Assembly (NCBI GenBank): GCA_036261495.1
Contig: DATAKR010000058.1
Location: 1-48,328 of the forward strand
DNA from: Acidimicrobiales bacterium
GTDB taxonomy: Bacteria; Actinomycetota; Acidimicrobiia; Acidimicrobiales; CADCTF01
Length of the DNA: 48,328 bases
Direction of reading: 5' to 3'
Shown piece by piece: positions 4,610-48,328 of the stretch (positions are counted from its first letter, which is position 1; every line of letters starts with the position of its first letter). A program made the position numbers and the translations under genes. Under the pieces are notes generated by a model, which was not told where the DNA came from, did not search any database, and saw nothing but the letters and a program-made list of their open reading frames with translations.

Positions 4610-5568
4610 GAGGCGAGCGGCACCGGGAACCGGGCGTGCACCCGCCAGCCGGGGCGACCCGCCCGCGGGCCGAGATCGAGCGTGCCACCTGCAGCGGCCA
4701 CGCGCTCGCGCATGCCGACGAGACCGTGGCCGTCACCCGCCGGCGGGGGCGGCACGTGCCCCGCGCCGTCGTCGTCGACGACGACGTCGACGCTGTTCGG
4801 GGCGTAGTCGAGCTCGATCCGCACGGTGGCCCGCGGGGCATGACGGACCACGTTGGTGAGCGACTCCTGCACCACGCGGTACGCGGCCAGCTGGACGCCC
4901 GGCGAGACGGTCGGGGGGATCTCGCCGATCACGTCGAGGTGGGCGTCGAGGCCGGCGGTGCGGAGCGTGTCGACGAGGTCGGGGATGTCGGTGAGCCGTG
5001 GAAGTGGAGCGGTCGGCGCCGCCTCGGGCGCCGGCGGCGGCGAGCCGGTCGTGCCCCAGCCCGGAGCCCGCGCCTGCCATCCGGATGGATCGCCGGAGGG
5101 CGGACGCGCCGCGTCGCCCAGCGAGGCGTCGGCGCCCCGGAGCACGGCCAGCAGGTTTCGCAGCTCGGTGAGGCTCTGGCGTCCGGCCTGCTCGGCGGCC
5201 GCCAGCGCCTGGTCCGCGAGCTCCGGTGAGCGAGGCGCCGCCCGCCGCGCCGCCGCGATCTGGATCGTCATGAGGCTCACGCCGTGGGCGACGATGTCGT
5301 GGAGCTCGCGTGCGATGCGCACCCGCTCCTCGGCCACCGCGAGCCGGGCGGTGCGGTGCTCCTCGATCTCGAGGCGGCGCTCCTCGATCTCGATGCGGCG
5401 GGCCCGACCGACCAGGAACTGGACCCCCACGCCGATCAGGATCAGCGGCCAGACGTAGACGAGCTGCACCGTCCAGAGGCCGGCCGACTCGAGCAGGAAG
5501 CCGGTGCCGATGAGCGCGAAGACGACGCCGGCGACGGCGCGCCCGCTCCTGACGTCACCGGCCGGCAC
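4606..5568 (-). CDS. HisKA_3-type sensor histidine kinase (LiaS/DesK-like)
   Basis: Two N-terminal TM helices, H-box RIARELHDIVAHGVS, and a C-terminal HATPase region (DDGAGHV...GHGLVGMRERV). Confidence 0.85.
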   Translation of the reverse strand: MPAGDVRSGRAVAGVVFALIGTGFLLESAGLWTVQLVYVWPLILIGVGVQFLVGRARRIEIEERRLEIEEHRTARLAVAEERVRIARELHDIVAHGVSLMTIQIAAARRAAPRSPELADQALAAAEQAGRQSLTELRNLLAVLRGADASLGDAARPPSGDPSGWQARAPGWGTTGSPPPAPEAAPTAPLPRLTDIPDLVDTLRTAGLDAHLDVIGEIPPTVSPGVQLAAYRVVQESLTNVVRHAPRATVRIELDYAPNSVDVVVDDDGAGHVPPPPAGDGHGLVGMRERVAAAGGTLDLGPRAGRPGWRVHARFPVPLAS

Positions 5569-6334
5569 GGGCGACCCGGCTACGGAACGGGCCCACGGAG
5601 CCGCGCGTCGCGTCCTCGCTGCGGACGACGATCTGGCCTCCGGCGACCGACAGGTCGAGCACGAGCGGCGCGTTCGGAGGGCCCTGCACCCGGTCGGCGG
5701 GCCCTCCGCCCTGGGCCACGTTCGTGCCGAACAGCTGCACGTCGCCGCCCCATCGCACGTGGGTGACGATCCGCACGTTCTGCCCGAGCGCGTCGGGCAC
5801 CACGACTTCGATCTGCCCGAAGCCGAGGGTCGCTCGCACCGTCTTCGGTTGGGGGGCGTCGGTGACGGGTGCCGCCGGTGTGTCGGTCGAGGCGGTCGAG
5901 GCGGTCGAGGCGGTCGCCATGGCGCGGGTGGCGTCGGTGAGGTCGATCACCATGTGGCCGATGAACAGGTCGTAGGAGGTCGCCGGAGCTTCCAGGGCGG
6001 TCGGGTGGAACCGGCGCTCGCCGATGCCACCGTGCATCGACGACGTGTCGAGCGAGACCGACGACGTGGTGGCGAGGGCCACCGTGAGCGCGATGCCGAC
6101 GAGCACCAGGCCGCCCCCGCGGCTCTTCGCCGTCGCCACCATCGACACGCCGAGCACCACGAGGAGGCCGGCGAGGATCGCCTGCCACGACAGGCCGATC
6201 ACGCCCGATTCGCGGAGCAGCCAGGCGGCCCCGAAGAGCACCAGCAGCAGGCCCAGGATGGGCGCGTCGGCGGAGCGCGAACGCCGCGTCGCGGGACGGG
6301 AGTGGGGTCGCGGCGGCGTCGCCGTGGCGGTCAT
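5555..6334 (-). CDS. LiaF-like membrane protein (cell-wall-active-antibiotic response type C-terminal domain)
   Basis: This is the C-terminal 259 aa of ORF 5555..7300, starting at MTATATPP (ATG 6334). It has TM helices followed by a beta-rich tail, ATLGFGQIEVVVPDALGQNVRIVTHVRWGGDVQLFG...LVLDLSVAGGQIVVRS. Overlaps the kinase start by 14 nt. Confidence 0.55.
   Translation of the reverse strand: MTATATPPRPHSRPATRRSRSADAPILGLLLVLFGAAWLLRESGVIGLSWQAILAGLLVVLGVSMVATAKSRGGGLVLVGIALTVALATTSSVSLDTSSMHGGIGERRFHPTALEAPATSYDLFIGHMVIDLTDATRAMATASTASTASTDTPAAPVTDAPQPKTVRATLGFGQIEVVVPDALGQNVRIVTHVRWGGDVQLFGTNVAQGGGPADRVQGPPNAPLVLDLSVAGGQIVVRSEDATRGSVGPFRSRVARAGR
5885..5916. repeat. in-frame 9-bp tandem repeat (GGTCGAGGC x3 plus partial)
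   Basis: Read directly. It encodes the ASTASTAST linker of the LiaF-like protein. Confidence 0.85.
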
Positions 6335-9844: not shown

Positions 9845-10852
9845 ATGGCGCTCGACAAGTACCAGTCGATGCGGGACTTCGAGAGGACGGCCGAGCCGTC
9901 GGGCACCGACGAGCCGGAGATCTCCGAGCACGAGGCGAGGGGCGAGCCGCGCTTCGTGGTGCAGGAGCACCACGCGACCGCCCTGCACTGGGACTTCCGC
10001 CTCGAACGTGGAGGGGTGCTGGTGTCGTGGGCGCTTCCGAAGGGCGTCCCCCCGCATCCGAAGGTCAACAACATGGCCGTGCACACCGAGGACCACCCCC
10101 TCAGCTACTTCGACTTCGCGGGCGACATCCCCGAGGGGGAGTACGGCGGCGGCAAGGTGATGCTCTGGGACCAGGGCACCTACGACGAGCTCAAGTGGAG
10201 CGACCGCGAGGTGATGGTCGTCCTCCACGGCGAGCGGGCCCGCGGCAAGTACGTGCTCTTCAAGACCGGCAACGACGCCCGCAGCTGGATGATCCACCGG
10301 ATGGATCCGCCCGAGGACCCCACACGGGAGCTGGTGCCCCGCGACGTCCGCCCGGCGGCTCCGGAGGAGGGACCCCTGCCTCGCGGCGACGCCGCCCGCG
10401 GTTGGCGGTGGATGCCGACGTGGGGCGGTGCCCGCGTCGCGATCACGGTCGAAGGGGGCCGGTGCACGGCGCGGGAGGCCGCCGGCGACGACGTCACGAA
10501 GGCGTGGAAGGTGCTCGCCCCGTTCGGGCGCGCCGTCGGGTCGTTGGCGGTCGTGTTCGCCGGCGAGCTGGTGCATGCGTCGGCCTCGTCGAAGGACGGC
10601 GGGGCCGTGTTCCTCGACGACGTGCTGTGGCTCGACGGGCACGACGTCTCCGCACTGCCGTTCGCAACGCGGCGGTCGCGGCTCGAGGAGACGGGTCTCG
10701 AAGGGCCGGCGTGGCACGTCGCCCCGGCGTTCGACGAGCCGGCAGTGCTGCTCGAGGCGGCGGCGGCGCAGGGCCTGCCCGGCATCCTCGGTGTGCGTGA
10801 CGACGCGCCCTACGGCCCACCGCGGCTCGTCCGCACGGGCGACGTCGCCTGA
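9845..10852 (+). CDS. LigD-type 3'-phosphoesterase domain fused to a degenerate ATP-dependent-ligase-like domain
   Basis: C-terminal 335 aa of ORF 9377..10852, from MALDKYQSMRDFERTAEP. PE motifs FVVQEHHATALHWDFRLE, SWALPKGVP, HTEDHPLSYFDF and GEYGGGKVMLWD are present. The ligase-like tail has motif I reading TWGG instead of KxDG. Confidence 0.8.
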   Translation: MALDKYQSMRDFERTAEPSGTDEPEISEHEARGEPRFVVQEHHATALHWDFRLERGGVLVSWALPKGVPPHPKVNNMAVHTEDHPLSYFDFAGDIPEGEYGGGKVMLWDQGTYDELKWSDREVMVVLHGERARGKYVLFKTGNDARSWMIHRMDPPEDPTRELVPRDVRPAAPEEGPLPRGDAARGWRWMPTWGGARVAITVEGGRCTAREAAGDDVTKAWKVLAPFGRAVGSLAVVFAGELVHASASSKDGGAVFLDDVLWLDGHDVSALPFATRRSRLEETGLEGPAWHVAPAFDEPAVLLEAAAAQGLPGILGVRDDAPYGPPRLVRTGDVA

Positions 10853-10878
10853 CCAGCGGCGTGCCGGCTGATTGCCGC

Positions 10879-10900
10879 CTGTATACGCAGGAGTATACAG
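10879..10900. promoter_or_regulatory. perfect 8-bp inverted repeat CTGTATAC-N6-GTATACAG (operator-like), flanked by direct TTGCCGCC repeats (10872..10879, 10901..10908)
   Basis: Read directly. AT-rich island about 40 nt upstream of the predicted start at 10939. Confidence 0.55.
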
Positions 10901-10938
10901 TTGCCGCCGTTGTCACCACTTGGGGGGTGCTCGCGCGG

Positions 10939-12042
10939 ATGACCACGCTGCAGACCGAGTTCACGGCCGACGAGATCCTCATGGATCAACCGATCGCCGA
11001 GCCGCTCGTCACCGGCGGGGTCCGGTGCCACGGCGGGTTCGACGACACCGGCCGGTACGTCTCGCCGCGCACGCGCTTCCGCGTGCCCGGCATCGAGGCA
11101 TGGCAGCAGAAGCACCGCGAGGAGTTCGGCAACGAGATCCTCGACATCCCGCTCGAGACGTGGCCGTCGCACTACCCGAACGTCGCCCAGGCCCGCTACC
11201 TCATCGAGGCGGGGGTGCCCGAGCCGCTCGTGTCGACGCTCACGCGGATCGGCACGGTGGAGGGGTTCGGCGCCAACATCCGCTTCCTGCAGCCCGGCGA
11301 CATGCAGCGCCACTTCGACGAGTCGATCACCGGCACCGCGGTCGATCACCTGGGCAAGGGCCTGTTCGAGGCGCACGGCCGCGACGAGGCCGGGTGGGAG
11401 CGCGAAGCGGGGCACAAGGACATGTGGTTCACGGCGCGCGACATCGCGTTCGAGAACCCGTCGGCCCACATCGACATCGACGGCATGCTCCAGCGGATGG
11501 GGTTCGGCCAGAACCGGGGCTCCGGCGGCGGCGGGGGCGGTCCGCTGTTCGAGCGCCTCCTGCCCGACGACATCGACGCCAACCTCGAGCTCATCGCCGG
11601 GCTGATGACGCGCGTGCTGCTCATCGAGATCCAGGCGTTCCACACCTTCCGGTGGGCCGAGGCGTGGCTCTCCGACGACCAGCTCGTCGCCGGCGACGGC
11701 GAGGCCGCGAAGATCGTCACCTACATCCGCGCCGACGAGACGCCCCACGTCGGTTACCTCAAGACGGCGCTGACCGAGATGCGCGACCGCACCTGGATCG
11801 GCGAGTCCGGCAAGAAGTACGCGGGCGAGGAGATGATCGGGCGCATCTGGAACGCGGCGCTCGACCAGTCGCTCGGCGCCGGTCGCGAGCAGAACCGCAA
11901 GGCCATCCTCGGCGAGGTCGAGCACTTCTGCGGCAAGCGCCCCAACGGCGCCGAGATCCTCGAGGGCTTCCACGCCCTCGGCGACGGTGACCGCCCGGAG
12001 GCCGGCGGCGCCGCCGAGTACGGCCAACCGGCCACGTACTAG
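10939..12042 (+). CDS. conserved-looking hypothetical protein (Glu/His-rich helical motifs, internal Gly6 linker)
   Basis: ORF 10861..12042. The first about 26 codons use AT-ending codons and contain the palindrome, so the start is placed at ATG 10939. I do not recognise a family. Motifs LFEAHGRDEAGWE, LLIEIQAFH and ADETPHVGYL are noted. Confidence 0.6.
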   Translation: MTTLQTEFTADEILMDQPIAEPLVTGGVRCHGGFDDTGRYVSPRTRFRVPGIEAWQQKHREEFGNEILDIPLETWPSHYPNVAQARYLIEAGVPEPLVSTLTRIGTVEGFGANIRFLQPGDMQRHFDESITGTAVDHLGKGLFEAHGRDEAGWEREAGHKDMWFTARDIAFENPSAHIDIDGMLQRMGFGQNRGSGGGGGGPLFERLLPDDIDANLELIAGLMTRVLLIEIQAFHTFRWAEAWLSDDQLVAGDGEAAKIVTYIRADETPHVGYLKTALTEMRDRTWIGESGKKYAGEEMIGRIWNAALDQSLGAGREQNRKAILGEVEHFCGKRPNGAEILEGFHALGDGDRPEAGGAAEYGQPATY

Positions 12043-18530: not shown

Positions 18531-19487
18531 TCAGTCCATGGTGAGGACGATCTTGCCGAGCTTGCCGCCGGCCGCGAAGCGGTCGTACGCCGCCGCGGCC
18601 TCCGCCAGCGGGAACGTCTCGGCCACCGGTACGCGCACGTCGCCGGCGTCGAGCAGCGGGAGCACGTGGCGCTCGACGCGCCGGGCCGCGTCGGCCTTCT
18701 CCTCGAGCGACCGGGTGCGCAGCGTCGAACCCCGGATCGCCCCTCGCGAGCGCATCAGCGCCGACAGGTCGATCTCGGCCCGGGCGCCGGCGCCGACGCC
18801 GATGATCGAGATGCGCCCCCATGTGTCGAGCGTCGCGAGGTTGGCCGCGAGGTTCGGTGCGCCGACGAGCTCGAGGATGACGTCGTAGGGCCCGTGCTCG
18901 ACGAACGCGCCCGGCGCCACCACCGACGTCCACCCCGCCTCGCTGCCGAGCGCGGCGACGGCGTCGCGAAGCTCCTCGTTGCGAACCGTCGCCGTCACCC
19001 ATGCTCCCGCCGCTGCGGCGAGCTGCACGGCCGCGGTCCCCACGCCGCCGGCCGCGCCGTGGACGCACACCCGCTCGCCCATCTGGAGACCGCACTGGGT
19101 GAACAACGCGTCGTGGGCGGTCGTGAACACCTCCGGGAAGCCGCCGGCCTCGGGCCAGTCGATCGACACGGGGACGGGCATCGCCAGCCGCTCGTGCACG
19201 ACGGCGAGCTCCGCCTGGCCGGCGCCGGCGACGACCGCCATGACCCGGTCGCCGAGCGAGAGGCGGGTGACGCCCGGCCCCGCGGCGACGACCTCGCCGG
19301 CGATCTCGAGTCCGGGGATGTCGGCCGGCACGCCCGGCGGCGGCGGGTAGAAGCCCTGGCGTTGCATCAGATCGGCACCGTTGAGCCCGGCCGCGAACAC
19401 CCGGACGAGGACCTCCCCGGTGCCGGGTTCGGGCGGCGGCCGCTCCGCCACGACGATCTCGCCCTCGACGATCGTTGCCGCGCGCAT
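18531..19487 (-). CDS. NADPH:quinone oxidoreductase (zeta-crystallin type MDR)
   Basis: GEVLVRVFAAGLNGADLMQRQG, PGLEIAGEV, VHGAAGGVGTAAVQLA, GKLGKIVL. Start at MRAATIV (19487). Confidence 0.85.
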   Translation of the reverse strand: MRAATIVEGEIVVAERPPPEPGTGEVLVRVFAAGLNGADLMQRQGFYPPPPGVPADIPGLEIAGEVVAAGPGVTRLSLGDRVMAVVAGAGQAELAVVHERLAMPVPVSIDWPEAGGFPEVFTTAHDALFTQCGLQMGERVCVHGAAGGVGTAAVQLAAAAGAWVTATVRNEELRDAVAALGSEAGWTSVVAPGAFVEHGPYDVILELVGAPNLAANLATLDTWGRISIIGVGAGARAEIDLSALMRSRGAIRGSTLRTRSLEEKADAARRVERHVLPLLDAGDVRVPVAETFPLAEAAAAYDRFAAGGKLGKIVLTMD

Positions 19488-19577
19488 GGCCGACGAACCT
19501 AGCGCCGCGACCATCCTCCACCTCGCGCACGCGGCGGTCCACCATGTGCGGGGCGGACCAAGCGAGGAGGGCGCGCG

Positions 19578-19781
19578 GTGACGGCGTCGTACGTGGAAGC
19601 TGATCGGGACGCAGCCGGAGCGATGCTCTGCCCGGCGTGCGGTTGGGTGCGCGCCGGCGACGGGTGCAGCTGCGGCGACGCCATGTCTTCGTCGCTGCCG
19701 GCGGTCCGCTGGTTCGACGTGGCGGCCGTCACCATCCTCGTGGTGGGATTGGTGTCGCTGCTCGTCCTCGCCGCGGCCTGA
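19578..19781 (+). CDS. possible small Cys-rich (CPAC...CSC) protein with a C-terminal TM helix
   Basis: 67-aa ORF with a GTG start. Contains LCPACGWVRAGDGCSCGD followed by VAAVTILVVGLVSLLVLAAA. No homology recognised. Confidence 0.3.
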   Translation: MTASYVEADRDAAGAMLCPACGWVRAGDGCSCGDAMSSSLPAVRWFDVAAVTILVVGLVSLLVLAAA

Positions 19782-19797
19782 CCGCGCCGGCGGGGCG

Positions 19798-21009
19798 TCA
19801 GTTGACGCGACCGGCGCCGTAGAGGTCGCTGCGGAAGATCGAGGCGTAGCGCACGTAGGCGCCGGTGTGGGGCGCCTCGATCATCTGGCCGTTGCCCACG
19901 TAGATGCCCATGTGGTGCAGGTCGCTTCCGAAGAACACGAGGTCGCCGGGCTGCAGGTCGGAGATGGCGACGCGACTCGTGGCGTCCCACTGCGCGTAGG
20001 TGGAGTGGGGCAGGCTCTTGCCGCCGGCACGCCAGGCCCACATCGTCAGCCCGCTGCAGTCGAACGAGTCGGGTCCGGCGGCGCCCCACTGGTAGGGCTT
20101 GCCGAGCTGGCGCTGGGCCTCGGCGACCGCCGCCGAGGCGCCGGAGGAAGGCGGCGGCGCGTTCGAGGGGGCCGGCGCCGGCGACCCGCCGCTCGACGGC
20201 GGCGCGGTGGTCGTCGTGGTGGCCGGCTTCTGGGTGACGAGGGGGCTCGCCGGCGCGGTCGTCGTCGTGGTCGTCGCTGCTCGGGCCCGAGCGGCAGCAG
20301 CCGCGGCCGCGTCCTCGCGCGCCTTCCGCGCCGCCAGCTCGGCCTGCACGCGCGCCGCCTCCTCGGCGGCGCGGCGCTCCTGCTCGGCCTGCACGAGGGC
20401 CGCCAGCTCACCCTGGGTCTTGGCGAGGAGGTCGCGCTGCTGCTTCTCGAGGGCCTGGGCCTGCGCACGCTTGGCGTCGACGGTCTTCAACGCGTTGTCG
20501 GCCTGCTCGCGCGACGTGCGGAGCGCGGCCTGCTCCTCGTCGAGCCGCTTGCGGGCCTCGCGGAGCGCGTCGAGCGTCTCGCCGGCCGAAGCCGTGACGG
20601 CCCGCACGTAGGTGCCCCGCACGGCGAGGTCGTCGGTCGACTTCGTGGAGGCGAGCATCTGCAGCGCCGGCGACGACCCGCCGCGCATGTAGGCGACGAC
20701 CGACTGGCCCTTCAGCCGGGCGCGGATGGCGCTCACCTGCGCATCGGTGTCGGCGACGTTCTTCTCGGCGGTCGCCTGCCGCTCCTGGAGCTTCTGCACC
20801 TGGATCTGGGCTTGGTCGTACTGCTCGGCGAGCACCGACATCTGGCGGTCCTGGGCTTCGAGATCGCTGGCGATCTGCTGCGCCTGCGCGCGCTTGTCGC
20901 TGATCTCGTCGGCGCGCGCGGGCGACGCGAGGGTCGGCAGCAGAGCCACCACCACCGAGAGGATGGCGACCGCACGCAGACGGGGAAGGGCGTGGAGGGT
21001 CTGTCTCAT
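19798..21009 (-). CDS. secreted NlpC/P60 (C40) peptidoglycan endopeptidase with N-terminal coiled-coil (RipA-like architecture)
   Basis: Signal peptide, long Gln/Ala/Glu coiled-coil, Thr/Pro linker, then [21 protein letters not shown]...[21 protein letters not shown]. Confidence 0.9.
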
Positions 21010-38209: not shown

Positions 38210-38256
38210 GGAGGGCGGGTCAGGCGGCGGCGTGGAGGGCGGGTCAGGCGGCGGCG
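38210..38256. repeat. 23-bp unit GGAGGGCGGGTCAGGCGGCGGCG duplicated with 1-nt spacer; the second copy contains the ACAD stop codon
   Basis: Aligned base by base. Confidence 0.9.
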
Positions 38257-39848
38257 CGGCGGACCAGCTGGCGGGCGATGACCTTGAGCGCCAGCGTCTC
38301 GTCGGCGCCCTCGAAGATCGACAGCACCCGGGCGTCGACGAACAGCCGGCTCACCGGGAACTCCTCGGCGTAGCCCATCCCGCCATGGATCTGCATGGCC
38401 TCCCGGGTGACCCACTCGGCGGCGCGGCACACGTAGGCCTTGACCATCGACGCCTCCATGGCGCCCTCGCCCTTGGCCATCAGCCGGGCGACCTCGTACA
38501 TGAACTGCCGGGCCGACTGGATGATCACCGCCATCCGCGCCAGCTTCACCTTGGTGAGCTGGTAGTCGACGATGGCCTCGCCGAACACCACGCGGTTCTG
38601 CGCGTAGTCGAGCGCCTGCTCGTAGGCCGCCTGCATCACGCCGACGGCCCGCGCCGCGGTCTGCAGCCGGCCGTTCTCGAAGCCCTCCATCTGCAGGTAG
38701 AAGCCCCGGCCGAGGCCGGCCTCGCCGCCGATGAGGTTCTCCTCCGGCACGATCCAGTTGTCGAACGCGACCTCATAGGAGTGCATGCCGCGGTAGCCGA
38801 TCGTGTCGATGGCGCGTCCCTCCATGCGCCCGCCGGTGCCCTCCTGGGTGAACTCGAACCCGTGGCCCTCGCCCCGCGGCTTGGGAACGATGAAGAGCGA
38901 CAGCCCGCGATGACCGGCGGAGCGATCGGGATCGGTGCGTGCGAGCAGCATCAGCACGTCGGCGCGGGCCGCGAACGTGCACCAGGTCTTGACGCCGTTG
39001 ATGGCCCAGCCGGGGCTGCCGTCGGCGGTCTCGGCGCGGGTGGCCGTCACCTTCAGTCCGGCCACGTCGGAGCCGAAGTCGGGCTCGGTGACGGCGACGG
39101 CGTTCATGATCTCGCCGGTAGCCAGCATCGGGAGCCAGTGCTGCTTCTGCTCCTCGGTGCCGCCCTTCACCAGGGCGCGGGTGAGGATCTCGGGCCGGGT
39201 GATCAGCGAGCCGCCGACTCCGAGCGATCCGCGAGCCAGCTCCTCGGTGGCGACCACCATCGCCATGTACTCGCCCTCGCCGCCGGCGGCGAAGCCGCCG
39301 TACTCCTCGGGCACCGAGAGCCCGAACGTGCCGATCTCGGCGAGGCCCGAGATCACGTCTTCGGGGATGTCGTCGTTGTGGCGATGGATGTGCTCGGCGA
39401 CCGGCTTGATCTTGTCGTCGGCGAAGCGCCGGAAGGTGTCCTGCACCATCTCGAACTCATCGTCGAGGTGACGCGGCCCCTGGTCGCCGGCGAGCGCCGC
39501 GAGGTACTCGGGGTCGCGGTAGGCGCGGACGAAGTCGCGGGTCGACGACAGCGCGCCCTCGTCGATGCCCCACTCCGGCTCGCGACCGATGGTCTTGGAG
39601 ATCAGGTCGAAGACGGCGTCGGCCACGAACGCGCAGGCGATGCGTGCTTCGAGATCGCCCTTGGCGCCGTAATCGAGGACGGCGCGCGCGTTCTCCACGG
39701 CAGCGGCAGCGTGGGCGAGGTCGTAGGCGACGACCTGGTTGGCGTCGAGGTCGCCGGCCGCGGCGAGCGTCTTCGCGGCGGTATCGACGACCGACTTCGC
39801 GGTGTCGACCACCGCGGCGGCGGCGGCGAGATCGGGGATCGCGGGCAT
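38244..39848 (-). CDS. long acyl-CoA dehydrogenase with an N-terminal extension of about 150 aa (methylsuccinyl-CoA-dehydrogenase-like architecture)
   Basis: 534 aa. An Ala-rich helical N-terminal extension precedes the canonical ACAD core: AVTEPDFGSDVAG, WCTFAARAD, QIHGGMGYAEEFPVSRLFVDARVLSIFEG. Confidence 0.8.
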   Translation of the reverse strand: MPAIPDLAAAAAVVDTAKSVVDTAAKTLAAAGDLDANQVVAYDLAHAAAAVENARAVLDYGAKGDLEARIACAFVADAVFDLISKTIGREPEWGIDEGALSSTRDFVRAYRDPEYLAALAGDQGPRHLDDEFEMVQDTFRRFADDKIKPVAEHIHRHNDDIPEDVISGLAEIGTFGLSVPEEYGGFAAGGEGEYMAMVVATEELARGSLGVGGSLITRPEILTRALVKGGTEEQKQHWLPMLATGEIMNAVAVTEPDFGSDVAGLKVTATRAETADGSPGWAINGVKTWCTFAARADVLMLLARTDPDRSAGHRGLSLFIVPKPRGEGHGFEFTQEGTGGRMEGRAIDTIGYRGMHSYEVAFDNWIVPEENLIGGEAGLGRGFYLQMEGFENGRLQTAARAVGVMQAAYEQALDYAQNRVVFGEAIVDYQLTKVKLARMAVIIQSARQFMYEVARLMAKGEGAMEASMVKAYVCRAAEWVTREAMQIHGGMGYAEEFPVSRLFVDARVLSIFEGADETLALKVIARQLVRRAAA

Positions 39849-39901
39849 GGCCGGAGGTTACCGACGTGCGTTCGCGCACTCCCACTCCGACTCCGGTCCC
39901 G

Positions 39902-39950
39902 GTTCTGCAGGCACTGGCGCGGCTTCAGCCCGCGCCAGTGCCTGCAGAAC
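39902..39950. repeat. palindromic intergenic element, copy 2 (perfect 21-bp stem GTTCTGCAGGCACTGGCGCGG-cttcagc-CCGCGCCAGTGCCTGCAGAAC)
   Basis: Read directly. Arms differ from copy 1 (13480..13526) by one base each. Confidence 0.85.
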
Positions 39951-39957
39951 GAGGCGG

Positions 39958-40608
39958 TCAGGACGCCGGGCGGCGGGCGACGACCGTCACCAGCGGGGGG
40001 AGCACGATGGCGACTTCGCCAGGGTCGACGCCGGTGAGGGCCTCGAGGTAGTCGGCCACACCGCCGGCACCCGCGCCGGCCGGAGCCTCGGCCCAGGCAT
40101 CGACGATCTCGAGCCCCGCGTCGCGCACGAGCGCCGGCAGCAGGGCACCGACGTCGGGATCGCGGGCGTCGGGGAACGACAGGGGCGTCCCGTCGACGCG
40201 GCCGGCGGTGGTGATCGGCTCTTGGGCCACCACCCAGCCGCCCGGCCGGACGGCGTCACCCATCCGGCGCAGCACGCGGACCGGGTCGACGACGTGCATG
40301 AGCAGGAACCGGCAGAAGGCGAGGTCGACCGGTTCGGGAAGGGTCAGGTCCTCACCCGACTGGGTGATGGCGATCACCTGGGCTCCGAGCGCGGCGGCCG
40401 CGCGCGCCACCTCGTCGCGCCGCGCCGGGTCGACGTCGACGGCGTAGATCCGCCCGTCCCGCCCCACGATCTCGGCGAGTGCGACGCTGACGTCACCGCC
40501 GCCGGCGCCGACGTCGACGCACCGCCATCCCTCGCGCAGCCCCAGGCGGTCGAGCGCGGTCGCGAGCGGCCGCCGGTAGACGTCGTTGCGCAGGCCGAGC
40601 TCGGTCAC
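39958..40608 (-). CDS. class I SAM-dependent methyltransferase
   Basis: CVDVGAGGGDVSVALA, IYAVDVD, VRPGGWVV. Confidence 0.8.
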   Translation of the reverse strand: MTELGLRNDVYRRPLATALDRLGLREGWRCVDVGAGGGDVSVALAEIVGRDGRIYAVDVDPARRDEVARAAAALGAQVIAITQSGEDLTLPEPVDLAFCRFLLMHVVDPVRVLRRMGDAVRPGGWVVAQEPITTAGRVDGTPLSFPDARDPDVGALLPALVRDAGLEIVDAWAEAPAGAGAGGVADYLEALTGVDPGEVAIVLPPLVTVVARRPAS

Positions 40609-40619
40609 GGTGGCGAACG

Positions 40620-41078
40620 CTAGCGACCGCTCGCGGCGGCGACGGCCGACACGAGGTCGTCGATCGAGGGCCGGTCGCGCGACGTCGCCTGGCGGTGGAG
40701 CATCGCGATCCGCCCGGCACCGTCGACGACGACGTCGCCGCCGAGCTGCGAGCCGTCGGCGGCCGACCGACCAAAGCCGAAGGCCCCGTAGGTGGCGAGC
40801 GACTCGTCGGTGGCCACCGTGAGCGGCTCGAGGAAGCGGGCGCGGTACCCGTGCAGGGTGCGGGGGCGCGCGTGGACGACGACGACGACCTCGGCGTCGC
40901 CGAACTCCTCGAGGCGGTCGCGCACGGCGGCCGCGTGGTCGCGGCAGGGCAGTCAGGCGAGGTCGCGCGAGTAGAGCAGCACGACCGGGTGGCCCCGGTG
41001 ATCGCGGAGGCGCCAGGTCGAACCTGCGTGGTCGACGAGCACGACGTCGGGCGCAGGGTCGCCGGAGGACAGAGCCAT
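40620..41078 (-). CDS. peroxiredoxin-like (AhpC/TSA-redoxin fold) protein with in-frame TGA at 40953..40955: candidate selenoprotein (U-L-P-C motif), or else a pseudogene
   Basis: Manual translation from ATG 41078 gives MALSSGDPAPDVVLVDHAGSTWRLRDHRGHPVVLLYSRDLA-TGA-LPCRDHAAAVRDRLEEFGDAEVVVV..., continuing in frame into track ORF 40620..40925. The TGA sits where the first Cys of the family CxxC(R) motif lies. Confidence 0.55.
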
Positions 41079-42264
41079 GCGCAACTATCGCGCGGTGACC
41101 GCGCCCCTCTCACGCACCGATCCCGCGCTCGCCGACGACCTGGTCGCCGCCGTCCGCACCTTCGTGGAGAAGGAGGTGCTGCCCGTCGCATCCGACCTCG
41201 AGCACGCCGACGAGTACCCGGAGGCGCTCGTCGCGCAGATGCGCGACCTCGGCCTCTTCGGCGCCACCATCCCCGTGGAGCACGGCGGGCTCGGGCTCGA
41301 CACCGTCACGTACGCGCGGATCGTCGAGGAGCTCGCCGCCGGCTGGATGTCGCTCTCCGGCGTCGTCAACACGCACCTGATCTGCGCCACCCTCATCCGC
41401 CTCCACGGCACCGACGGGCAGAAGTCCAGGTGGTTGCCGCAGATGGCGTCCGGTGAGCGGCGCGGGTGCCTCTCGCTGTCGGAGCCCGACGCCGGCAGCG
41501 ACACTCGGGCCCTGCGCTGCAAGGCCACGCGCGACGGCGACGAGTACGTGCTCAACGGCACGAAGATGTGGGTCACCAATGGCGAGCGAGCCGGCATCGT
41601 GGCGCTCGCCGCGAGAACCGACGAGGGCATCACCTGCTTCATGGTCGAGAAGGACCCGGGGCCGGCCTACAAGGGCATCGCCGTATCGAAGAAGATCGAC
41701 AAGCTCGGCTACAAGGGTCTCGAGACGGTGGAGATGACCTACACCGACCACCGGGTCCCGGCCGACTGGGTGCTCGGCGGGACCGACGCCGGCCTCGGCC
41801 ACGGTCTGCCGCAGATCCTCGGCGCGCTCGAGCTCGGGCGGGTCAACATCGCCGCCCGAGCGTGCGGCGTCGGGCGGGCCGCGTTCGAGGCCTCGATCCG
41901 GTACGCGCAGGAACGAGAGACGTTCGGCGTTCCGATAGCCCGGCACCAGGCGATCCAGTTCAAGCTGGCCGACATGGCCACCAAGCTCGAGGCGGCCCGG
42001 CTCCTCACTCGGTCGGCCGCGGAGAAGCTCGACACCGGCCAGCGGGCCGACGTCGAGGCCGGCATGGCGAAGCTGTTCGCGTCGGAGACGGCGCTCGAGC
42101 TCGCGACCGAGGCGATGCGCATCCACGGCGGCTACGGCTACACCACCGAGTTCCCGGTGGAGCGCTACTACCGCGACGCGCCGCTGATGATCATCGGCGA
42201 GGGCACCAACGAGATCCAACGCCTGGTGATCGCCCGCGGCCTGCTCGCGCGCTACAGCATCTGA
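41077..42264 (+). CDS. acyl-CoA dehydrogenase
   Basis: 395 aa. LSEPDAGSD, WVTNG, RIHGGYGYTTEFPVERYYRDAPLMIIGEGTNEIQ. Confidence 0.9.
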   Translation: MRNYRAVTAPLSRTDPALADDLVAAVRTFVEKEVLPVASDLEHADEYPEALVAQMRDLGLFGATIPVEHGGLGLDTVTYARIVEELAAGWMSLSGVVNTHLICATLIRLHGTDGQKSRWLPQMASGERRGCLSLSEPDAGSDTRALRCKATRDGDEYVLNGTKMWVTNGERAGIVALAARTDEGITCFMVEKDPGPAYKGIAVSKKIDKLGYKGLETVEMTYTDHRVPADWVLGGTDAGLGHGLPQILGALELGRVNIAARACGVGRAAFEASIRYAQERETFGVPIARHQAIQFKLADMATKLEAARLLTRSAAEKLDTGQRADVEAGMAKLFASETALELATEAMRIHGGYGYTTEFPVERYYRDAPLMIIGEGTNEIQRLVIARGLLARYSI

Positions 42265-42278
42265 TCACGGGGCCGCCG

Positions 42279-43910
42279 TCACGCCGCGAAGGACGCCGTC
42301 GCGAGCCAGCTCTCGAAGGCGTCCGGGGCGAGGGCCTTCGAGACGTGGTGCCCCTGGATCTCGTCGCACCCGAGCGACTCGAGTCGATCGATCGTGCCGG
42401 CGGTCTCGACGCCCTCGGCCACGACATGCAGTCCGAGGTCGTGACCGAGCCCGATGATCGACTGCACGACGGTGGTGCCCTGGTCGCTCGTCAGCTCACC
42501 GACGAACGAACGGTCGATCTTGAGCTCGTCGAGCGGAAGGCGTGACAGGTACGCGAGCGACGAGTAGCCCGTGCCGAAGTCGTCCATGCTCACCCTGGCG
42601 CCGAGCGCCTGGAGGCGGCGCAGGAGCGTCCGGGCCATGGGCAGGTCCTCCGCCATCTGGGTCTCGGTGAGCTCGAGCGTCAGCCGGCCGGGATCGAGCG
42701 CCTGGTCGTCGATGACCTTGGTGAGCACGCGCACGAGGTTCGGGTCGTAGAGGTTCCGTGCAGAGATGTTGGCGGCGACGCTGAGGTCGTGGCCCGAGTC
42801 GAGCCACCGCCGGCACTGCCGCGCGGCGCGGTCGATGACCCAGGCCGTGAGCGGGCCGATCAGCGCGCTCTCCTCGGCCATCGGGATGAACTCGGCCGGC
42901 GAGACCGGTCCGAGCGTCGGGTGGTTCCACCGCAGCAACGCCTCGGCGCCCTTCACGTGCTTGGTCGCGAGGTCGATCTTGGGCTGGAAGTGGAGCTCGA
43001 GCTCGCCGTTGTAGATGGCGTCGCGCAGCTCGGAGATGAGGGTGAGGCGCCGCATGTTGAAGCGGTCCTCGTGGGCGTTGTAGACGGCGACGCCACGCGG
43101 GGCGCGCTTCGCGAGCCACATCGCGACGTCGGCCTGGCGCAGGAGCTGGTCGGCATCGGTGCCATGGTCGGGGTAGCCGCTCACGCCGACGCTTGCGGTC
43201 ACCCGCACCGCCAGCTGGCCGGCGACGAACGGCGACGAGAAGGACCGGGCGACGCGGGCGGCGACCTCGTCGAGGCGCGCATCCTCCACCGGCACCAGGA
43301 GCGCGAACTCGTCGCCGGCGACCCGGCACACGGCGCGCACCGGCCCGGGCAGCCGCTCGAGGCGTCGGGCCACCTGATGGAGGATGAGGTCACCCTGACG
43401 ATGGCCGAGGGTGTCGTTGATCTCGTTGAAGTGGTCGAGGTCGAGAAGGACGACGGCCAAGCGCTCGCGATCGCCGCCGGTGACGGCCTCGTCGAGGCGG
43501 CGCACGAAGGCGTCGCGGTTCTCGAGCTCGGTGAGCGGATCGTGGCTCAGCATGTGGTCGAGGCGGACGCGTGTCTCCTCGGAGGCGGTGGTGTCGACCA
43601 TCGTGATGGCGACGTGCCCGGCGGCCACGGGCTTCATCTCGATCTCCACGACGCGCCGCCGGGCGACCTGGACGTTCGGGATGCGCAGTGGTGCGCCGGT
43701 GCTCGCCGCGTATGCGAGGGCGACGATGGCGCCGTGGTCGGGAAGGACCGACGTAAGCGGGCTGCCGACGGGAAGCTCACGGCCGAGCAGGCGGGCCGCG
43801 GCGGCGTTCGCCTCGACGAGGACGACGTCGTGCGTGGCCGACGCGTCGACGCGCCACAACGACATCCCGATGTCGACGCTGCGGAACAACGCCTCGTGGA
43901 GTGCCGTCAC
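42279..43910 (-). CDS. PAS-GGDEF-EAL signalling protein (c-di-GMP turnover)
   Basis: The GGDEF domain carries an AGDEF active-site variant (RVAGDEFALLV). The EAL domain has GAEALLRW, LELTE, DDFGTGYSSL, LKIDRSF, VAEGVET and QGHHVS. Confidence 0.9.
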   Translation of the reverse strand: MTALHEALFRSVDIGMSLWRVDASATHDVVLVEANAAAARLLGRELPVGSPLTSVLPDHGAIVALAYAASTGAPLRIPNVQVARRRVVEIEMKPVAAGHVAITMVDTTASEETRVRLDHMLSHDPLTELENRDAFVRRLDEAVTGGDRERLAVVLLDLDHFNEINDTLGHRQGDLILHQVARRLERLPGPVRAVCRVAGDEFALLVPVEDARLDEVAARVARSFSSPFVAGQLAVRVTASVGVSGYPDHGTDADQLLRQADVAMWLAKRAPRGVAVYNAHEDRFNMRRLTLISELRDAIYNGELELHFQPKIDLATKHVKGAEALLRWNHPTLGPVSPAEFIPMAEESALIGPLTAWVIDRAARQCRRWLDSGHDLSVAANISARNLYDPNLVRVLTKVIDDQALDPGRLTLELTETQMAEDLPMARTLLRRLQALGARVSMDDFGTGYSSLAYLSRLPLDELKIDRSFVGELTSDQGTTVVQSIIGLGHDLGLHVVAEGVETAGTIDRLESLGCDEIQGHHVSKALAPDAFESWLATASFAA

Positions 43911-44019: not shown

Positions 44020-44628
44020 TCAGGCGGCGACGAGCGCGCTGACGAGGCCCGAGATCTGATCGCGGTCGACGTCATCGATCTCGAGGAACACGAGCCGGTA
44101 CTCGAACCCGTCGTCGACCGTCTCGCTCTGCAACACCGCGGCCAGTGCGACGACGGTGCCGCCGTTGGGGAGCGTAAGCGTGACCGTCGGGTCGCACCCG
44201 CCGGGGAACGCCTTCCGGGTGCGCACCCGGCATCCTCCCTGGCCGAGGTCGACGGTGTCGCCGATCACCGACACGAACGCGCCGGGGTCGTCGAAGTTCG
44301 AGAGCGTGGCCGGGAGCACGACCCGGGCCCGAGGTGTCGCGCGTCGCTGCACCCGTTCGATGCGATGCACGGTGAGATCGACGATCTTGGCGCGCCCGTC
44401 GTGGGGCGACGCGGTCGCGTTGACGCGGTAGAGGGCGTCGGGCGCGAAGAAGCTGGCGACCACCTCGACGGCGTCACCCGGCGGCTGCGGGGAGGCGCCG
44501 AGGTCGATGACGACGGCATCGTCGTCGTCGTCGCCGCCGACGACGACACCGGTGAGGCAGTCGCGACTCCCGTCGGCGAGCTCGATCAGCGCGAGCTGGC
44601 CGGCGACGGGCCTCCATGCGAACGGCAT
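44020..44628 (-). CDS. PilZ-domain protein (probable c-di-GMP receptor)
   Basis: QRRATPR (RxxxR motif) and DLGQGGCRV (D/NxSxxG-like motif). Start MPFAWRPV at 44628. Confidence 0.65.
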   Translation of the reverse strand: MPFAWRPVAGQLALIELADGSRDCLTGVVVGGDDDDDAVVIDLGASPQPPGDAVEVVASFFAPDALYRVNATASPHDGRAKIVDLTVHRIERVQRRATPRARVVLPATLSNFDDPGAFVSVIGDTVDLGQGGCRVRTRKAFPGGCDPTVTLTLPNGGTVVALAAVLQSETVDDGFEYRLVFLEIDDVDRDQISGLVSALVAA

Positions 44629-44815
44629 CGCTTCCACCCCCCTCGGTGTGTCGCGCGAAGTATCGGCCGAATGGGCGCTCCTCGCAGCCTCCGGGCCGCG
44701 AAATGACACGTACGGACCATGAGTGGATAGCACGGCGGCACCAGCCGAGCCCCGAGGGGCGCCATGGCGGCCCGACGTTTGGCCTCGCGATCCCGGCGTT
44801 GCCTACCGTTCGGCC

Positions 44816-46133: not shown

Positions 46134-47020
46134 GACCACCGCTCGCGCCGGCACGCACGCCGTTCCAGCGAGCGCTGCTCTCGTGGTGGGACGCGAACCG
46201 CCGCGATCTGCCGTGGCGGGCGACGCGCGATCCCTGGGCGGTGCTCGTCAGCGAGCTCATGCTCCAGCAGACGCAGGTCGCGCGGGTGGTGCCGAAGTTC
46301 CAGGCGTTCCTCGCGATGTTCCCCACTCCCGGCGACTGCGCCGGCGCGCCGGTCGGCGACGTGGTGAGGATGTGGCAGGGCCTCGGCTACAACCGCCGCG
46401 CCGTGAACCTCCACCGTGCCGCCCAGGCGTGCGTGGCGCACCACGGTGGACAGCTGCCGGCGACACTGCAGGAGCTGCTCGACCTGCCCGGCGTCGGGCC
46501 CTACACCGCCCGAGCGGTGCTCGCGTTCGCGCACGAGCGCGACGTGGGTGTTGTCGACACCAACGTGGCGCGGGTGCTCTCGCGCATCCGGGACGCACGG
46601 CTCGCGAGCCCGGGCGAAGCCCAGGCGGTCGCCGACGCGCACGTGCCGGCCGGCGCCGGCTGGTCGTGGAACCAGGCGCTGTTCGACCTGGGCGCCACCG
46701 TCTGCGTCAAGCGCTCGCCCGCGTGCGGGCGCTGCCCGGTCGAAGCCGGGTGCGGCTGGGCCCGCCGGGGCCGGCCGTCGCCCGATCCCGCGGACGGGAG
46801 CGCCGGCGCCTCGCGTCCTCAACCGCCGCTCGCCGGCTCCGATCGCGAGGGCCGCGGTCGCCTCGTCGACGCCCTCCGCCGAGGTCCGGTCGCGGCCGGC
46901 GACGAGGCGCGGGCTGCCGGCTGGCCGGCCGACCCGGCACGCGCCTCGCGGATCGCCGGCGGCCTCGTCGCCGACGGGCTCGCGGTGCGCGCCGGCGACG
47001 GCTCGCTACGGCTGCCCTGA
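46118..47020 (+). CDS. mutY: HhH-GPD adenine DNA glycosylase (MutY-like, short form)
   Basis: LPWRATRDPWAVLVSELMLQQTQV, LGYNRRA, LPGVGPYTARAV, VVDTNVARV, and the Fe-S loop CVKRSPACGRCPVEAGC. GTG start 46118 overlaps the upstream gene. Confidence 0.75.
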   Translation: MPAPLRPPLAPARTPFQRALLSWWDANRRDLPWRATRDPWAVLVSELMLQQTQVARVVPKFQAFLAMFPTPGDCAGAPVGDVVRMWQGLGYNRRAVNLHRAAQACVAHHGGQLPATLQELLDLPGVGPYTARAVLAFAHERDVGVVDTNVARVLSRIRDARLASPGEAQAVADAHVPAGAGWSWNQALFDLGATVCVKRSPACGRCPVEAGCGWARRGRPSPDPADGSAGASRPQPPLAGSDREGRGRLVDALRRGPVAAGDEARAAGWPADPARASRIAGGLVADGLAVRAGDGSLRLP

Positions 47021-47527
47021 CGTCAGGGCCGCGAGCACTGCGTCGACCGCGTCGTCGGCCAGCCGGTGCATCTCGTCGTCGGTGCGGTCCTGGATCGGGT
47101 GCGGCACGAAGACGCGCCGCACGTCGAGGCCGAGCGAGTGCACCTGCGCGTCGGCGGCCGCCACGAACTCGGAGGACGCGACGAACACGCCCGGGACGCG
47201 GCGACCCTCGAGATCGACGATGTCGTGCACACTGCACGACGTGCACGAGCCTCAGTCGGCGAGCGCCTCGATCACGACGTCGCAGCTCACCGAGATCTCG
47301 TGGCGAAGATCGACCGGCGCCGGCTTCGTGAAGGTCGGCTTCCGGTAGCGGCGGACCTCGAGGCCGCGCTCGCGCAGCCGCTCCTCGAGCCGGTCGAGGA
47401 ACACGTCGCCGCGGGGCTTGGAGATGTCGAGGAGACCGACGACCTTGCCCTCGAGCGATGCCGGCCTTGCGGTCAAGGGCCGCGCCACCGGTGCCCGTTC
47501 GCCCGTCGGATCGAGAAGGATGCTCAC
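47006..47527 (-). CDS. UGSC-motif protein with in-frame TGA at 47252..47254: candidate selenoprotein
   Basis: GTG 47527, 7 nt after GGGAGG, opens VSILLDPTGERAPV...SCDVVIEALAD-TGA-GSCTSCSVHDIVDLEGRR...TSGQP. This joins the tail of track ORF 47252..48286 to ORF 47006..47230 in one frame. An 8-bp stem hairpin starts 3 nt after the TGA. Confidence 0.65.
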
Positions 47528-48328
47528 GCTCGTACCTCCCGTGTGACGGGCTGGCTGCCCGCGGGGCCGTTCACCCACCCACCGATGATGGCCGAGAACA
47601 TGCCGGCCGTGCCGCCGGCGTGCACGACGAGGAGGCCGTCGGGCCGGAACTTGGGCAGCACGGCGTTGCGCACCTGCTCGGGCGCGCCCTCGGCGATGCC
47701 GCCCGCCCCCTTCACGATCTCCTCGCCGGGCAGCTGCAGCAGGGCGTGGAGCTCGGCGACGAGACGCTCTCGGCTCCAGCCGTCGGCGCGGAACGTCCGC
47801 GCGTGCTCGGGTGACACCACCACGACCGCGTCGAACCCGAGTGGGAGCTTCGGGTGGGCGACGGTGCGCAGGCACGCCGCGAAGGAGCGGGCGAGCGAGT
47901 CGGCGGTGCGCGACGCCTGGTCGATCACGCCCCGCACGCCTTCGCCGGCGAACAGCGTGACTGCCGACGTGCCGGGTGCGATGCCGCGGCTCACCGCCAG
48001 CGGCTCCCAGGGCGACGAGTCCTCGCTCTCGGCGAAGCAGAACGTGTACTTGCCCGGGTTGCCGAGCGTCGCCCGGTCGACCTCGCCCGGCCGCCCGCCA
48101 CCGACGTTGCGGATCACGAGCTGGAGCGCCCGCCCGATCGTCGCGTTGGCGCGGTTGCCCTGCCCGAGCGCGTTGATGCCGGAGTTCATCCCGATGGCCT
48201 TGGTGATGGGGCCGTTCACGATCACCATCGGCCCCGAGAAGTAGGTGGTCGCCAGAAGGCCGTGGATGTTGAACTGGTCGGTGCACGCGGCCTCGACGGC
48301 CGCGAGCACCACCGGCAGGTACTCGGGC
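47524..48328 (-). CDS. uncharacterised conserved-looking protein, 5' end beyond the window; GTGA-coupled to the UGSC gene
   Basis: Open to the right edge: ...PEYLPVVLAAVEAACTDQFNIHGLLATTYFSGPMVIVNGPITKAIGMNSGINALGQGNRANATIGRALQLVIRNVGGGRPGEVD... Family not recognised. Confidence 0.6.
   Translation of the reverse strand, partial: PEYLPVVLAAVEAACTDQFNIHGLLATTYFSGPMVIVNGPITKAIGMNSGINALGQGNRANATIGRALQLVIRNVGGGRPGEVDRATLGNPGKYTFCFAESEDSSPWEPLAVSRGIAPGTSAVTLFAGEGVRGVIDQASRTADSLARSFAACLRTVAHPKLPLGFDAVVVVSPEHARTFRADGWSRERLVAELHALLQLPGEEIVKGAGGIAEGAPEQVRNAVLPKFRPDGLLVVHAGGTAGMFSAIIGGWVNGPAGSQPVTREVRA

Follow-up and report, generated by a model that had tools for sequence, protein, structure and literature searches.

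Selenoproteins with a selenocysteine (Sec) at the first position of a UxxC redox motif in a peroxiredoxin-like (Prx-like) domain, as well as proteins containing a UGSC motif, have been described in the Sargasso Sea and Global Ocean Sampling (GOS) selenoproteomes and are listed in current catalogues (PMC2398784 Table 2; PMC5029168; PMC13188914). The UxxC Prx-like class was predicted bioinformatically, with a bacterial selenocysteine insertion sequence (bSECIS) located downstream of the UGA codon (PMC2398784 Table 2; PMC13188914). Here we describe a gene interrupted by an in-frame TGA codon in a contig from an Acidimicrobiales bacterium (DATAKR010000058.1, 48,328 nt, analysed over its whole length and hereafter called the window). 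The gene is genuine and encodes a small redox protein of thioredoxin fold, in which the TGA almost certainly specifies selenocysteine. In our opinion it is very likely that this recoding takes place at the first cysteine of a CxxC motif in a gene of redoxin fold, and that its product is a Prx-like UxxC protein of about 16 kDa.

A TGA codon conserved at the first position of a CxxC motif

Translation of the minus strand from the ATG at 41078 opens with a redoxin N-terminus, MALSSGDPAPDVVLVDHAGSTWRLRDHRGHPVVLLYSRDLA (in a longer quotation, GDPAPDVVLVDHAGSTWRLRDHRGHPVVLLYSRDLA). The frame then reaches a TGA at 40955..40953 and goes on as LPCRDHAAAVRDRLEEFGDAEVVVV until a TAG at 40622..40620. The start, the position of the TGA and the continuation in frame are those given in a preliminary description of this locus, which had placed the stop codon at the first cysteine of a CxxC motif. 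When the TGA is written as cysteine, the product scores 44.3 bits against the Pfam family AhpC-TSA (PF00578, cutoff 26) and 29.3 bits against the Pfam family Redoxin (cutoff 26.6). A start codon is found 41-45 codons 5' of the TGA in all of the 12 orthologs examined. Gene callers retain in the window a truncated open reading frame (ORF), 40620..40925, which starts at the GTG 40925..40923.

The protein search returned 29 homologs. In four close full-length homologs (P0002, P0003, P0005 and P0006) the column of the TGA is occupied by a cysteine, in the context RHLAC-[P/E/L]-PC. About 17 of the 29 are gene calls of 98-133 residues beginning with (M/V)R[D/S]R, just 3' of the TGA and at the same place as the truncated ORF of the window. 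In the DNA of three of these truncated homologs the frame is likewise interrupted by TGA at this column, with a redoxin N-terminus upstream in each. Nine loci came from a contig scan with one genome per species; all have the TGA, and they belong to metagenome-assembled genomes of Acidimicrobiia, Acidimicrobiales, Ilumatobacter or unclassified Actinomycetota. A metagenome scan contributed 80 loci, kept from 356 confirmed relatives. Since the search patterns sat downstream of the TGA column, neither TGA nor TGC was favoured in these counts.

Of the 95 homologous loci, which come from independent assemblies, 93 carry TGA at this column and two (L032 and L052) carry TGC. The TGA loci are 36-70% identical in protein sequence, and a redoxin N-terminus is located upstream of the TGA in each of them. 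The fourth position of the motif is a cysteine in all loci examined (TGC 40946..40944 in the window). The alignment with cysteine homologs and the search for TGA orthologs, both suggested in the preliminary description, therefore bear out its proposal that the TGA stands in place of the first cysteine of the motif. The same description had named a sequencing error as a possible refutation and had weighed Sec recoding against nonsense mutation; the recurrence of the same TGA in independent loci speaks against both an error and a nonsense mutation.

Two forms of the protein can be distinguished. The window protein, the TGA loci L001 and L016/L029 and the cysteine homolog P0003 (short form) all lack a segment of about 29 residues that most relatives (long form) have between GFGR(G) and EDxxQLGGD. 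Apart from the TGA, none of the short-form TGA copies (window, L001, L016/L029) contains a stop or a frameshift, and these copies differ in length by whole codons. The window protein retains 28 of the 28 family-invariant residues. Purifying selection acts on both flanks of the TGA codon. The ratio of non-synonymous to synonymous substitution rates (dN/dS), calculated against four cleanly aligned orthologs (L001, L016, L017 and L007), is 0.29-0.46 upstream (36 codons) and 0.30-0.59 downstream (52 codons). The downstream values for L021 and L024 were unusable because indels shift the ungapped comparison out of register.

A covarying hairpin downstream of the UGA

For every locus we took the RNA running from 6 nt upstream of the UGA to 51 nt downstream of it, which gave 76 distinct gap-free sequences of the TGA form (position 0 is the U of UGA). 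One structure, hairpin (a), GCGGCCGC-CGUGC-GCGACCGC, has a stem that begins 18 nt after the UGA and a loop that begins 26 nt after it. Over the 76 sequences, 89.1% of its cells are paired, compared with 22-51% for slid controls. There are 46 double-sided changes, spread over four of its pairs, a number reached by 0 of 500 shuffles (score 0.264 versus 0.169), with single pairs varying as CG/UA/UG and GC/AU/GU/CG. The stem has a predicted energy of -10.9 kcal/mol in the window. In the published bSECIS consensus (bSECISearch), the apical loop reportedly lies about 16-37 nt after the UGA, with a G/U in the loop. The geometry of hairpin (a), with its 8-bp stem, its loop at +26 nt and a G-U in the loop, fits this consensus.

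Codon usage shows a constraint in the same region. At codons +8 to +11 (Val GTC, Ala GCC, Val GTG, Arg CGC) the entropy of synonymous codon choice is 0-0.33 bits, compared with about 1.2-2.1 bits at upstream 4- and 6-fold degenerate codons. This test was limited to sequences carrying the majority amino acid and is therefore independent of amino-acid conservation. In addition, synonymous divergence (dS) in the part of the gene after the UGA is lower than in the part before it. The comparative set provides a lineage-specific bSECIS consensus (8-bp stem, CGUGC loop, 18-nt spacing between UGA and stem) that could seed a covariance model for the class.

The preliminary description had pointed to two GC-rich hairpins after the UGA, called here (c) and, for the bulged alternative, (b). 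Both are present in the sequence, but neither is conserved, and the covarying element is the one at 40934..40914. Hairpin (c) was rejected as a conserved element: only 65.8% of its cells pair, its measures do not exceed those of shuffles, and its energy is +2 to +6 kcal/mol in long-form orthologs. Structure (b) was rejected as well, with no covariation in its upper stem and a lower stem that is mostly unpaired. Hairpin (c) and the lower stem of (b) are confined to the window and its closest relatives. Hairpin (a) overlaps (b), but with a different pairing.

The GUG chosen as start by gene callers (40925..40923) is a conserved valine codon in the loop of hairpin (a), and the same column was chosen in the roughly 17 truncated database homologs. 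The family is consequently truncated in a systematic way in public protein sets. One could propose that the gene makes two products, a 41-residue peptide ending at the UGA and a 101-residue C-terminal protein restarting at GTG 40925; a GTG or ATG does occur at the restart position in many orthologs, and it is the one used by the callers. We give almost no credence to this possibility, since this GUG belongs to a conserved hairpin loop, the ULPC motif and strands beta-1 and beta-2 would be cut off from the rest of the domain, and the cysteine-form homologs are single polypeptides. Continuous translation through the UGA, with insertion of selenocysteine, is the reading that we retain.

Decoding of the UGA and genomic context

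We scanned the window (72% GC) for in-frame stops flanked on each side by 35 codons whose third-position GC exceeds 0.88. Only two sites were recovered, both of them TGA and both in redox motifs: 40955..40953, described above, and 47254..47252. The second TGA is found in the context ...EALAD-TGA-GSCTSC, corresponding to the motif D-U-G-S-C-T-S-C, in a gene that scores above the cutoff of the NCBIfam UGSC (seleno)protein family. The adjacent upstream ORF (47524..48312, minus strand) gave no Pfam match. A UGSC-family gene on the same contig is independent evidence that UGA is decoded as Sec in this organism, and the argument that the preliminary description had drawn from the second TGA, at 47252, holds.

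The UGA might nevertheless be read through without Sec, either because the code is reassigned (to Trp or Gly) or because a near-cognate tRNA inserts Cys or Trp. Two points speak for such a scenario: DNA does not reveal which residue is inserted, and no Sec machinery was seen for this organism. Against it, TGA is the commonest terminator among the high-GC3 (third-position GC) ORFs of the window, and we conclude from this ordinary use that the genetic code is standard. Furthermore, the restriction of internal TGAs to two redox-motif cysteine positions is the signature of Sec and not of a reassigned code, the second of these genes belongs to a curated (seleno)protein family, and a conserved covarying hairpin lies 3' of the UGA. 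The class Acidimicrobiia also includes lineages with selABCD: for Actinomarina, one of its members, selC, selA, selD and a divergent selB are reported from each of 84 complete genomes (preprint 10.64898/2026.04.03.716425). We regard read-through without Sec as very unlikely. Reassignment of the code is effectively excluded, as are sequencing error and nonsense mutation.

We propose that the hairpin at 40934..40914 would recruit SelB, together with Sec-tRNA(Sec), to a ribosome paused at the UGA, and that Sec would be inserted in place of termination. By analogy with CxxC enzymes of thioredoxin fold, the U42 selenolate, predicted to lie at the N-terminus of helix alpha-1, may attack a disulfide or another oxidised substrate. 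C45 would then resolve the intermediate as a selenenylsulfide, and a cellular thiol system could re-reduce the enzyme.

Several observations weigh against this interpretation. The window, which is the entire contig, contains no tRNA; no tRNA-Sec was found in 73 related loci scanned, and no SelD active-site signature in 518 kb of fetched DNA. The window copy of hairpin (a) carries a C-A mismatch, shared by several other loci encoding A-A-A-V-R-D-R, and it is practically equal in energy to hairpin (c), with which it cannot coexist (-10.9 versus -11.2 kcal/mol in this copy). Hairpin (a) also occurs outside the TGA forms: of five cysteine-form homologs, three keep 7-8 of the 8 pairs, so that part of the complementarity may stem from the conserved A-V-A-V-R-D-R peptide. 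A search of Rfam at gathering thresholds gave no SECIS or other match near the gene; bacterial SECIS elements are poorly represented in this database. At the protein level, the window product reaches 81.2 bits against a cutoff of 120 for its best NCBIfam family (NF040769, SelL-related redox protein, E 6.9e-23), in two stretches, and both histidines of FHRHLA-U are lost. Finally, the region 38244..42264 was compared with L001. The neighbouring genes are 89-93% identical, with dN/dS values of 0.06-0.15, whereas the selenoprotein is 70% identical, with a whole-gene dN/dS of 0.36, and evolves about 4 times faster than its neighbours at non-synonymous sites. The loss of the histidine pair and the faster evolution indicate a weaker constraint in the short-form clade.

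The low family score and the faster evolution, together with the missing segment of about 29 residues and the splitting of the gene by gene callers, would also be expected of a decaying Cys-type redoxin gene that owes its TGA to nonsense mutation or misassembly and produces fragments at most. However, the low NF040769 score can be attributed to the short-form clade lacking this segment: the short-form protein of L001 scores 85.9 bits, also in two stretches, and the long-form TGA orthologs L008 and L007 are above the cutoff, with 151.9 and 148.0 bits. The loss of about 29 residues is a lineage feature and not damage, since three independent short-form TGA copies are in intact frame and the natural cysteine short form P0003, also without the segment, is modelled with a confident fold. 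A decaying gene would not be expected to share its TGA with nearly all of its orthologs, to be free of other stops and frameshifts, to show dN/dS values well below 1 on either side of the TGA and to keep every family-invariant residue. A pseudogene is therefore exceedingly unlikely.

Some related contigs carry other genes of interest. Contig L004 contains a TGA redoxin and, about 10 kb from it, a DUF3179 gene (19405..20265, plus strand) whose UxxC motif also includes an in-frame TGA, at which gene callers split it (...ILVSW-TGA-PLCATA). The DUF3179 family (UxxC/T) is listed in a selenoprotein catalogue (PMC13188914). With the UGSC gene of the window and the sel genes reported for Actinomarina, this gene makes up good indirect evidence of Sec use by the organism. 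The acyl-CoA dehydrogenase gene adjoining the redoxin gene of L004 is likewise found in two calls, 10427..10987 and 11225..11572. The contig of the P0009 ortholog, L002, is redox-rich between 12835 and 17755, with OsmC, DsbA/Rv2466c-like, DoxX, a T4-deiodinase-family gene and another AhpC-TSA gene; several families in this neighbourhood include selenoproteins. In L011, ARAGORN reported a "tRNA-???" of 91 nt (5504..5594, plus strand), for which it called an odd anticodon, about 3 kb from the selenoprotein gene. It has no match in Rfam, even at E values up to 1, and is probably a false positive rather than a tRNA-Sec.

The coordinates of the elements identified in the window are given in the table below.

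Table 1. Elements of the TGA-containing redoxin locus and related features in the window
Feature	Coordinates	Strand	Description
Complete coding sequence of the predicted selenoprotein	41078..40620	-	152 codons including the Sec codon, then TAG; SelL-related / Prx-like thiol-disulfide oxidoreductase, short form
TGA read as Sec (U42)	40953..40955	-	First residue of the U-L-P-C redox motif, presumed nucleophile; aligns with the first Cys of CxxC
TGC, Cys45	40944..40946	-	Second redox residue of UxxC, presumed resolving; invariant in the 11-member ortholog alignment
Structure (a), candidate bacterial SECIS hairpin	40934..40914	-	Stem 21-28 / 34-41, loop 29-33; 8 bp, one C-A mismatch in the window copy
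Apical loop C-G-U-G-C	40922..40926	-	CGUGC in 58/76 and CGUGN in 72/76 sequences
Structure (b), bulged stem	40943..40919	-	Nearly invariant in its upper 4 bp; 62/76 sequences do not pair in the lower stem
Structure (c), GCCGCG-ACCA-CGCGGC	40945..40930	-	-11.2 kcal/mol in the window
Second selenoprotein gene, UGSC family	47006..47527	-	TGA 47254..47252; NCBIfam UGSC_fam 155.9 bits, cutoff 125
SAM (S-adenosylmethionine)-dependent methyltransferase gene	39958..40608	-	11 nt downstream of the redoxin gene; Pfam Methyltransf_11/25/12/23

The methyltransferase located just downstream is a probable operon partner of the redoxin in the short-form clade, and is itself followed by an acyl-CoA dehydrogenase gene. 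Another acyl-CoA dehydrogenase gene lies upstream of the redoxin gene in divergent orientation (plus strand). The start codons of these two divergent genes overlap in a CATG palindrome (41076..41079), leaving no intergenic room for promoters. As L001 conserves the N-termini of both proteins, the overlap seems to be real, and it points to transcripts without leaders or to promoters located within the opposing genes. The same gene arrangement is found in L001, where the methyltransferase is 93% identical; the contigs of L016/L029 are too short to show it. Elsewhere in the window, a ZMP/ZTP riboswitch (RF01750, 29261..29343, minus strand, 50.3 bits for a gathering score of 39) is the only Rfam match at gathering level. 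A GGDEF-EAL gene (42279..43910) adjoins a PilZ-domain gene (44020..44733), both on the minus strand, forming a cyclic di-GMP signalling pair, and genes for a MaoC hydratase and an HpcH/HpaI aldolase-lyase are located nearby.

Comparison with known redoxin and selenoprotein families

The window protein shares with the SelL-related redox proteins of NF040769 a thioredoxin-like fold and the [C/U]-x-P-C, QLGGD and DRP motifs, with U42, P44, C45, Q111-L-G-G-D115 and R136-P137 conserved. It differs from them by the loss of about 29 residues, by its score below the family cutoff and by the residues preceding the Sec: short-form TGA genes read [Y/F]-[S/L]-R-D-L-A-U (YSRDLA-U in the window), whereas long forms read F-H-R-H-L-A-U. 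Eukaryotic SelL has a UxxU motif. The product name of NF040769 does not carry the "(seleno)protein" tag, unlike that of the UGSC model NF041046. The UGSC family is also of UxxC type and is encoded on the same strand of the same contig, but it is an unrelated family, with the context D-U-G-S-C. The loss of the segment and of both histidines, the roughly fourfold faster evolution and the cluster of acyl-CoA dehydrogenase, redoxin, SAM-dependent methyltransferase and acyl-CoA dehydrogenase genes common to the window and L001 raise the idea that the short-form U-L-P-C clade (the window, L001 and L016/L029) is a neofunctionalised selenoenzyme, with a substrate unlike that of the long-form SelL-related proteins. 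We consider this idea speculative and rather unlikely; if true, the function of the short form could be tied to the adjoining methyltransferase or to acyl-CoA metabolism.

The structure was modelled on the natural cysteine short-form homolog P0003. The model predicts a complete peroxiredoxin/thioredoxin fold (pLDDT, predicted local distance difference test, 95.5; pTM, predicted template modelling score, 0.90), with the first cysteine directly before helix alpha-1 (residues 32-43). It superposes on AhpE and BCP with template modelling (TM) scores of 0.87-0.88. Two CxxC enzymes, ResA and human prostamide/prostaglandin F synthase (PGFS/PRXL2B), are structural matches as well. At the sequence level, a weak match was obtained with M. 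tuberculosis AhpE (E of about 4e-3). In this alignment, the peroxidatic cysteine of AhpE is opposite C45, and U42 falls at the threonine of the Prx TxxC motif, so that the window protein lacks the PxxxTxxC signature of typical peroxiredoxins. This position of the Sec indicates a thioredoxin-style UxxC site and not a Prx peroxidatic centre. The term "peroxiredoxin-like" used in the preliminary description is thus appropriate for the fold but not for the active site.

The overall fold is therefore shared by the window protein family with AhpE, BCP/PrxQ and the TxxU Prx selenoproteins. In peroxiredoxins the active Cys or Sec ends the TxxC/TxxU motif, whereas the window protein has U42 at the position of the threonine and C45 at the peroxidatic position, an arrangement closer to that of ResA or PGFS/PRXL2B. 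A "ULPU-containing selenoprotein" family is named in PMC5029168. This name resembles the U-L-P-C motif found here, which contains one Sec and has a cysteine at its fourth position; the resemblance should be taken as a lead only. Searching the literature for "ULPU" gave only irrelevant matches.

The gene is a further member of the UxxC Prx-like class catalogued since 2005-2008, an assignment that is correct and not surprising. Sec biology as known is unchanged by this example, as the class has been catalogued for about two decades. It adds a clear and well-supported case of UGA-to-Sec recoding in a high-GC genome of Acidimicrobiia type, a group whose selenoproteomes are little described. Although about 98% of the loci in the Acidimicrobiia clade are in Sec form, the family is systematically split or truncated in public gene calls, which matters for the annotation of actinobacteria abundant in soil, freshwater and marine environments. 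The protein has in common with the Prx-like PF00578 UxxC/UxxU selenoproteins a PF00578 match above gathering score, a UxxC motif with Sec first and abundant cysteine homologs. Compared with this catalogued class, the clade described here is mainly from Acidimicrobiia, of high GC content, and almost wholly in Sec form (93 of 95 loci).

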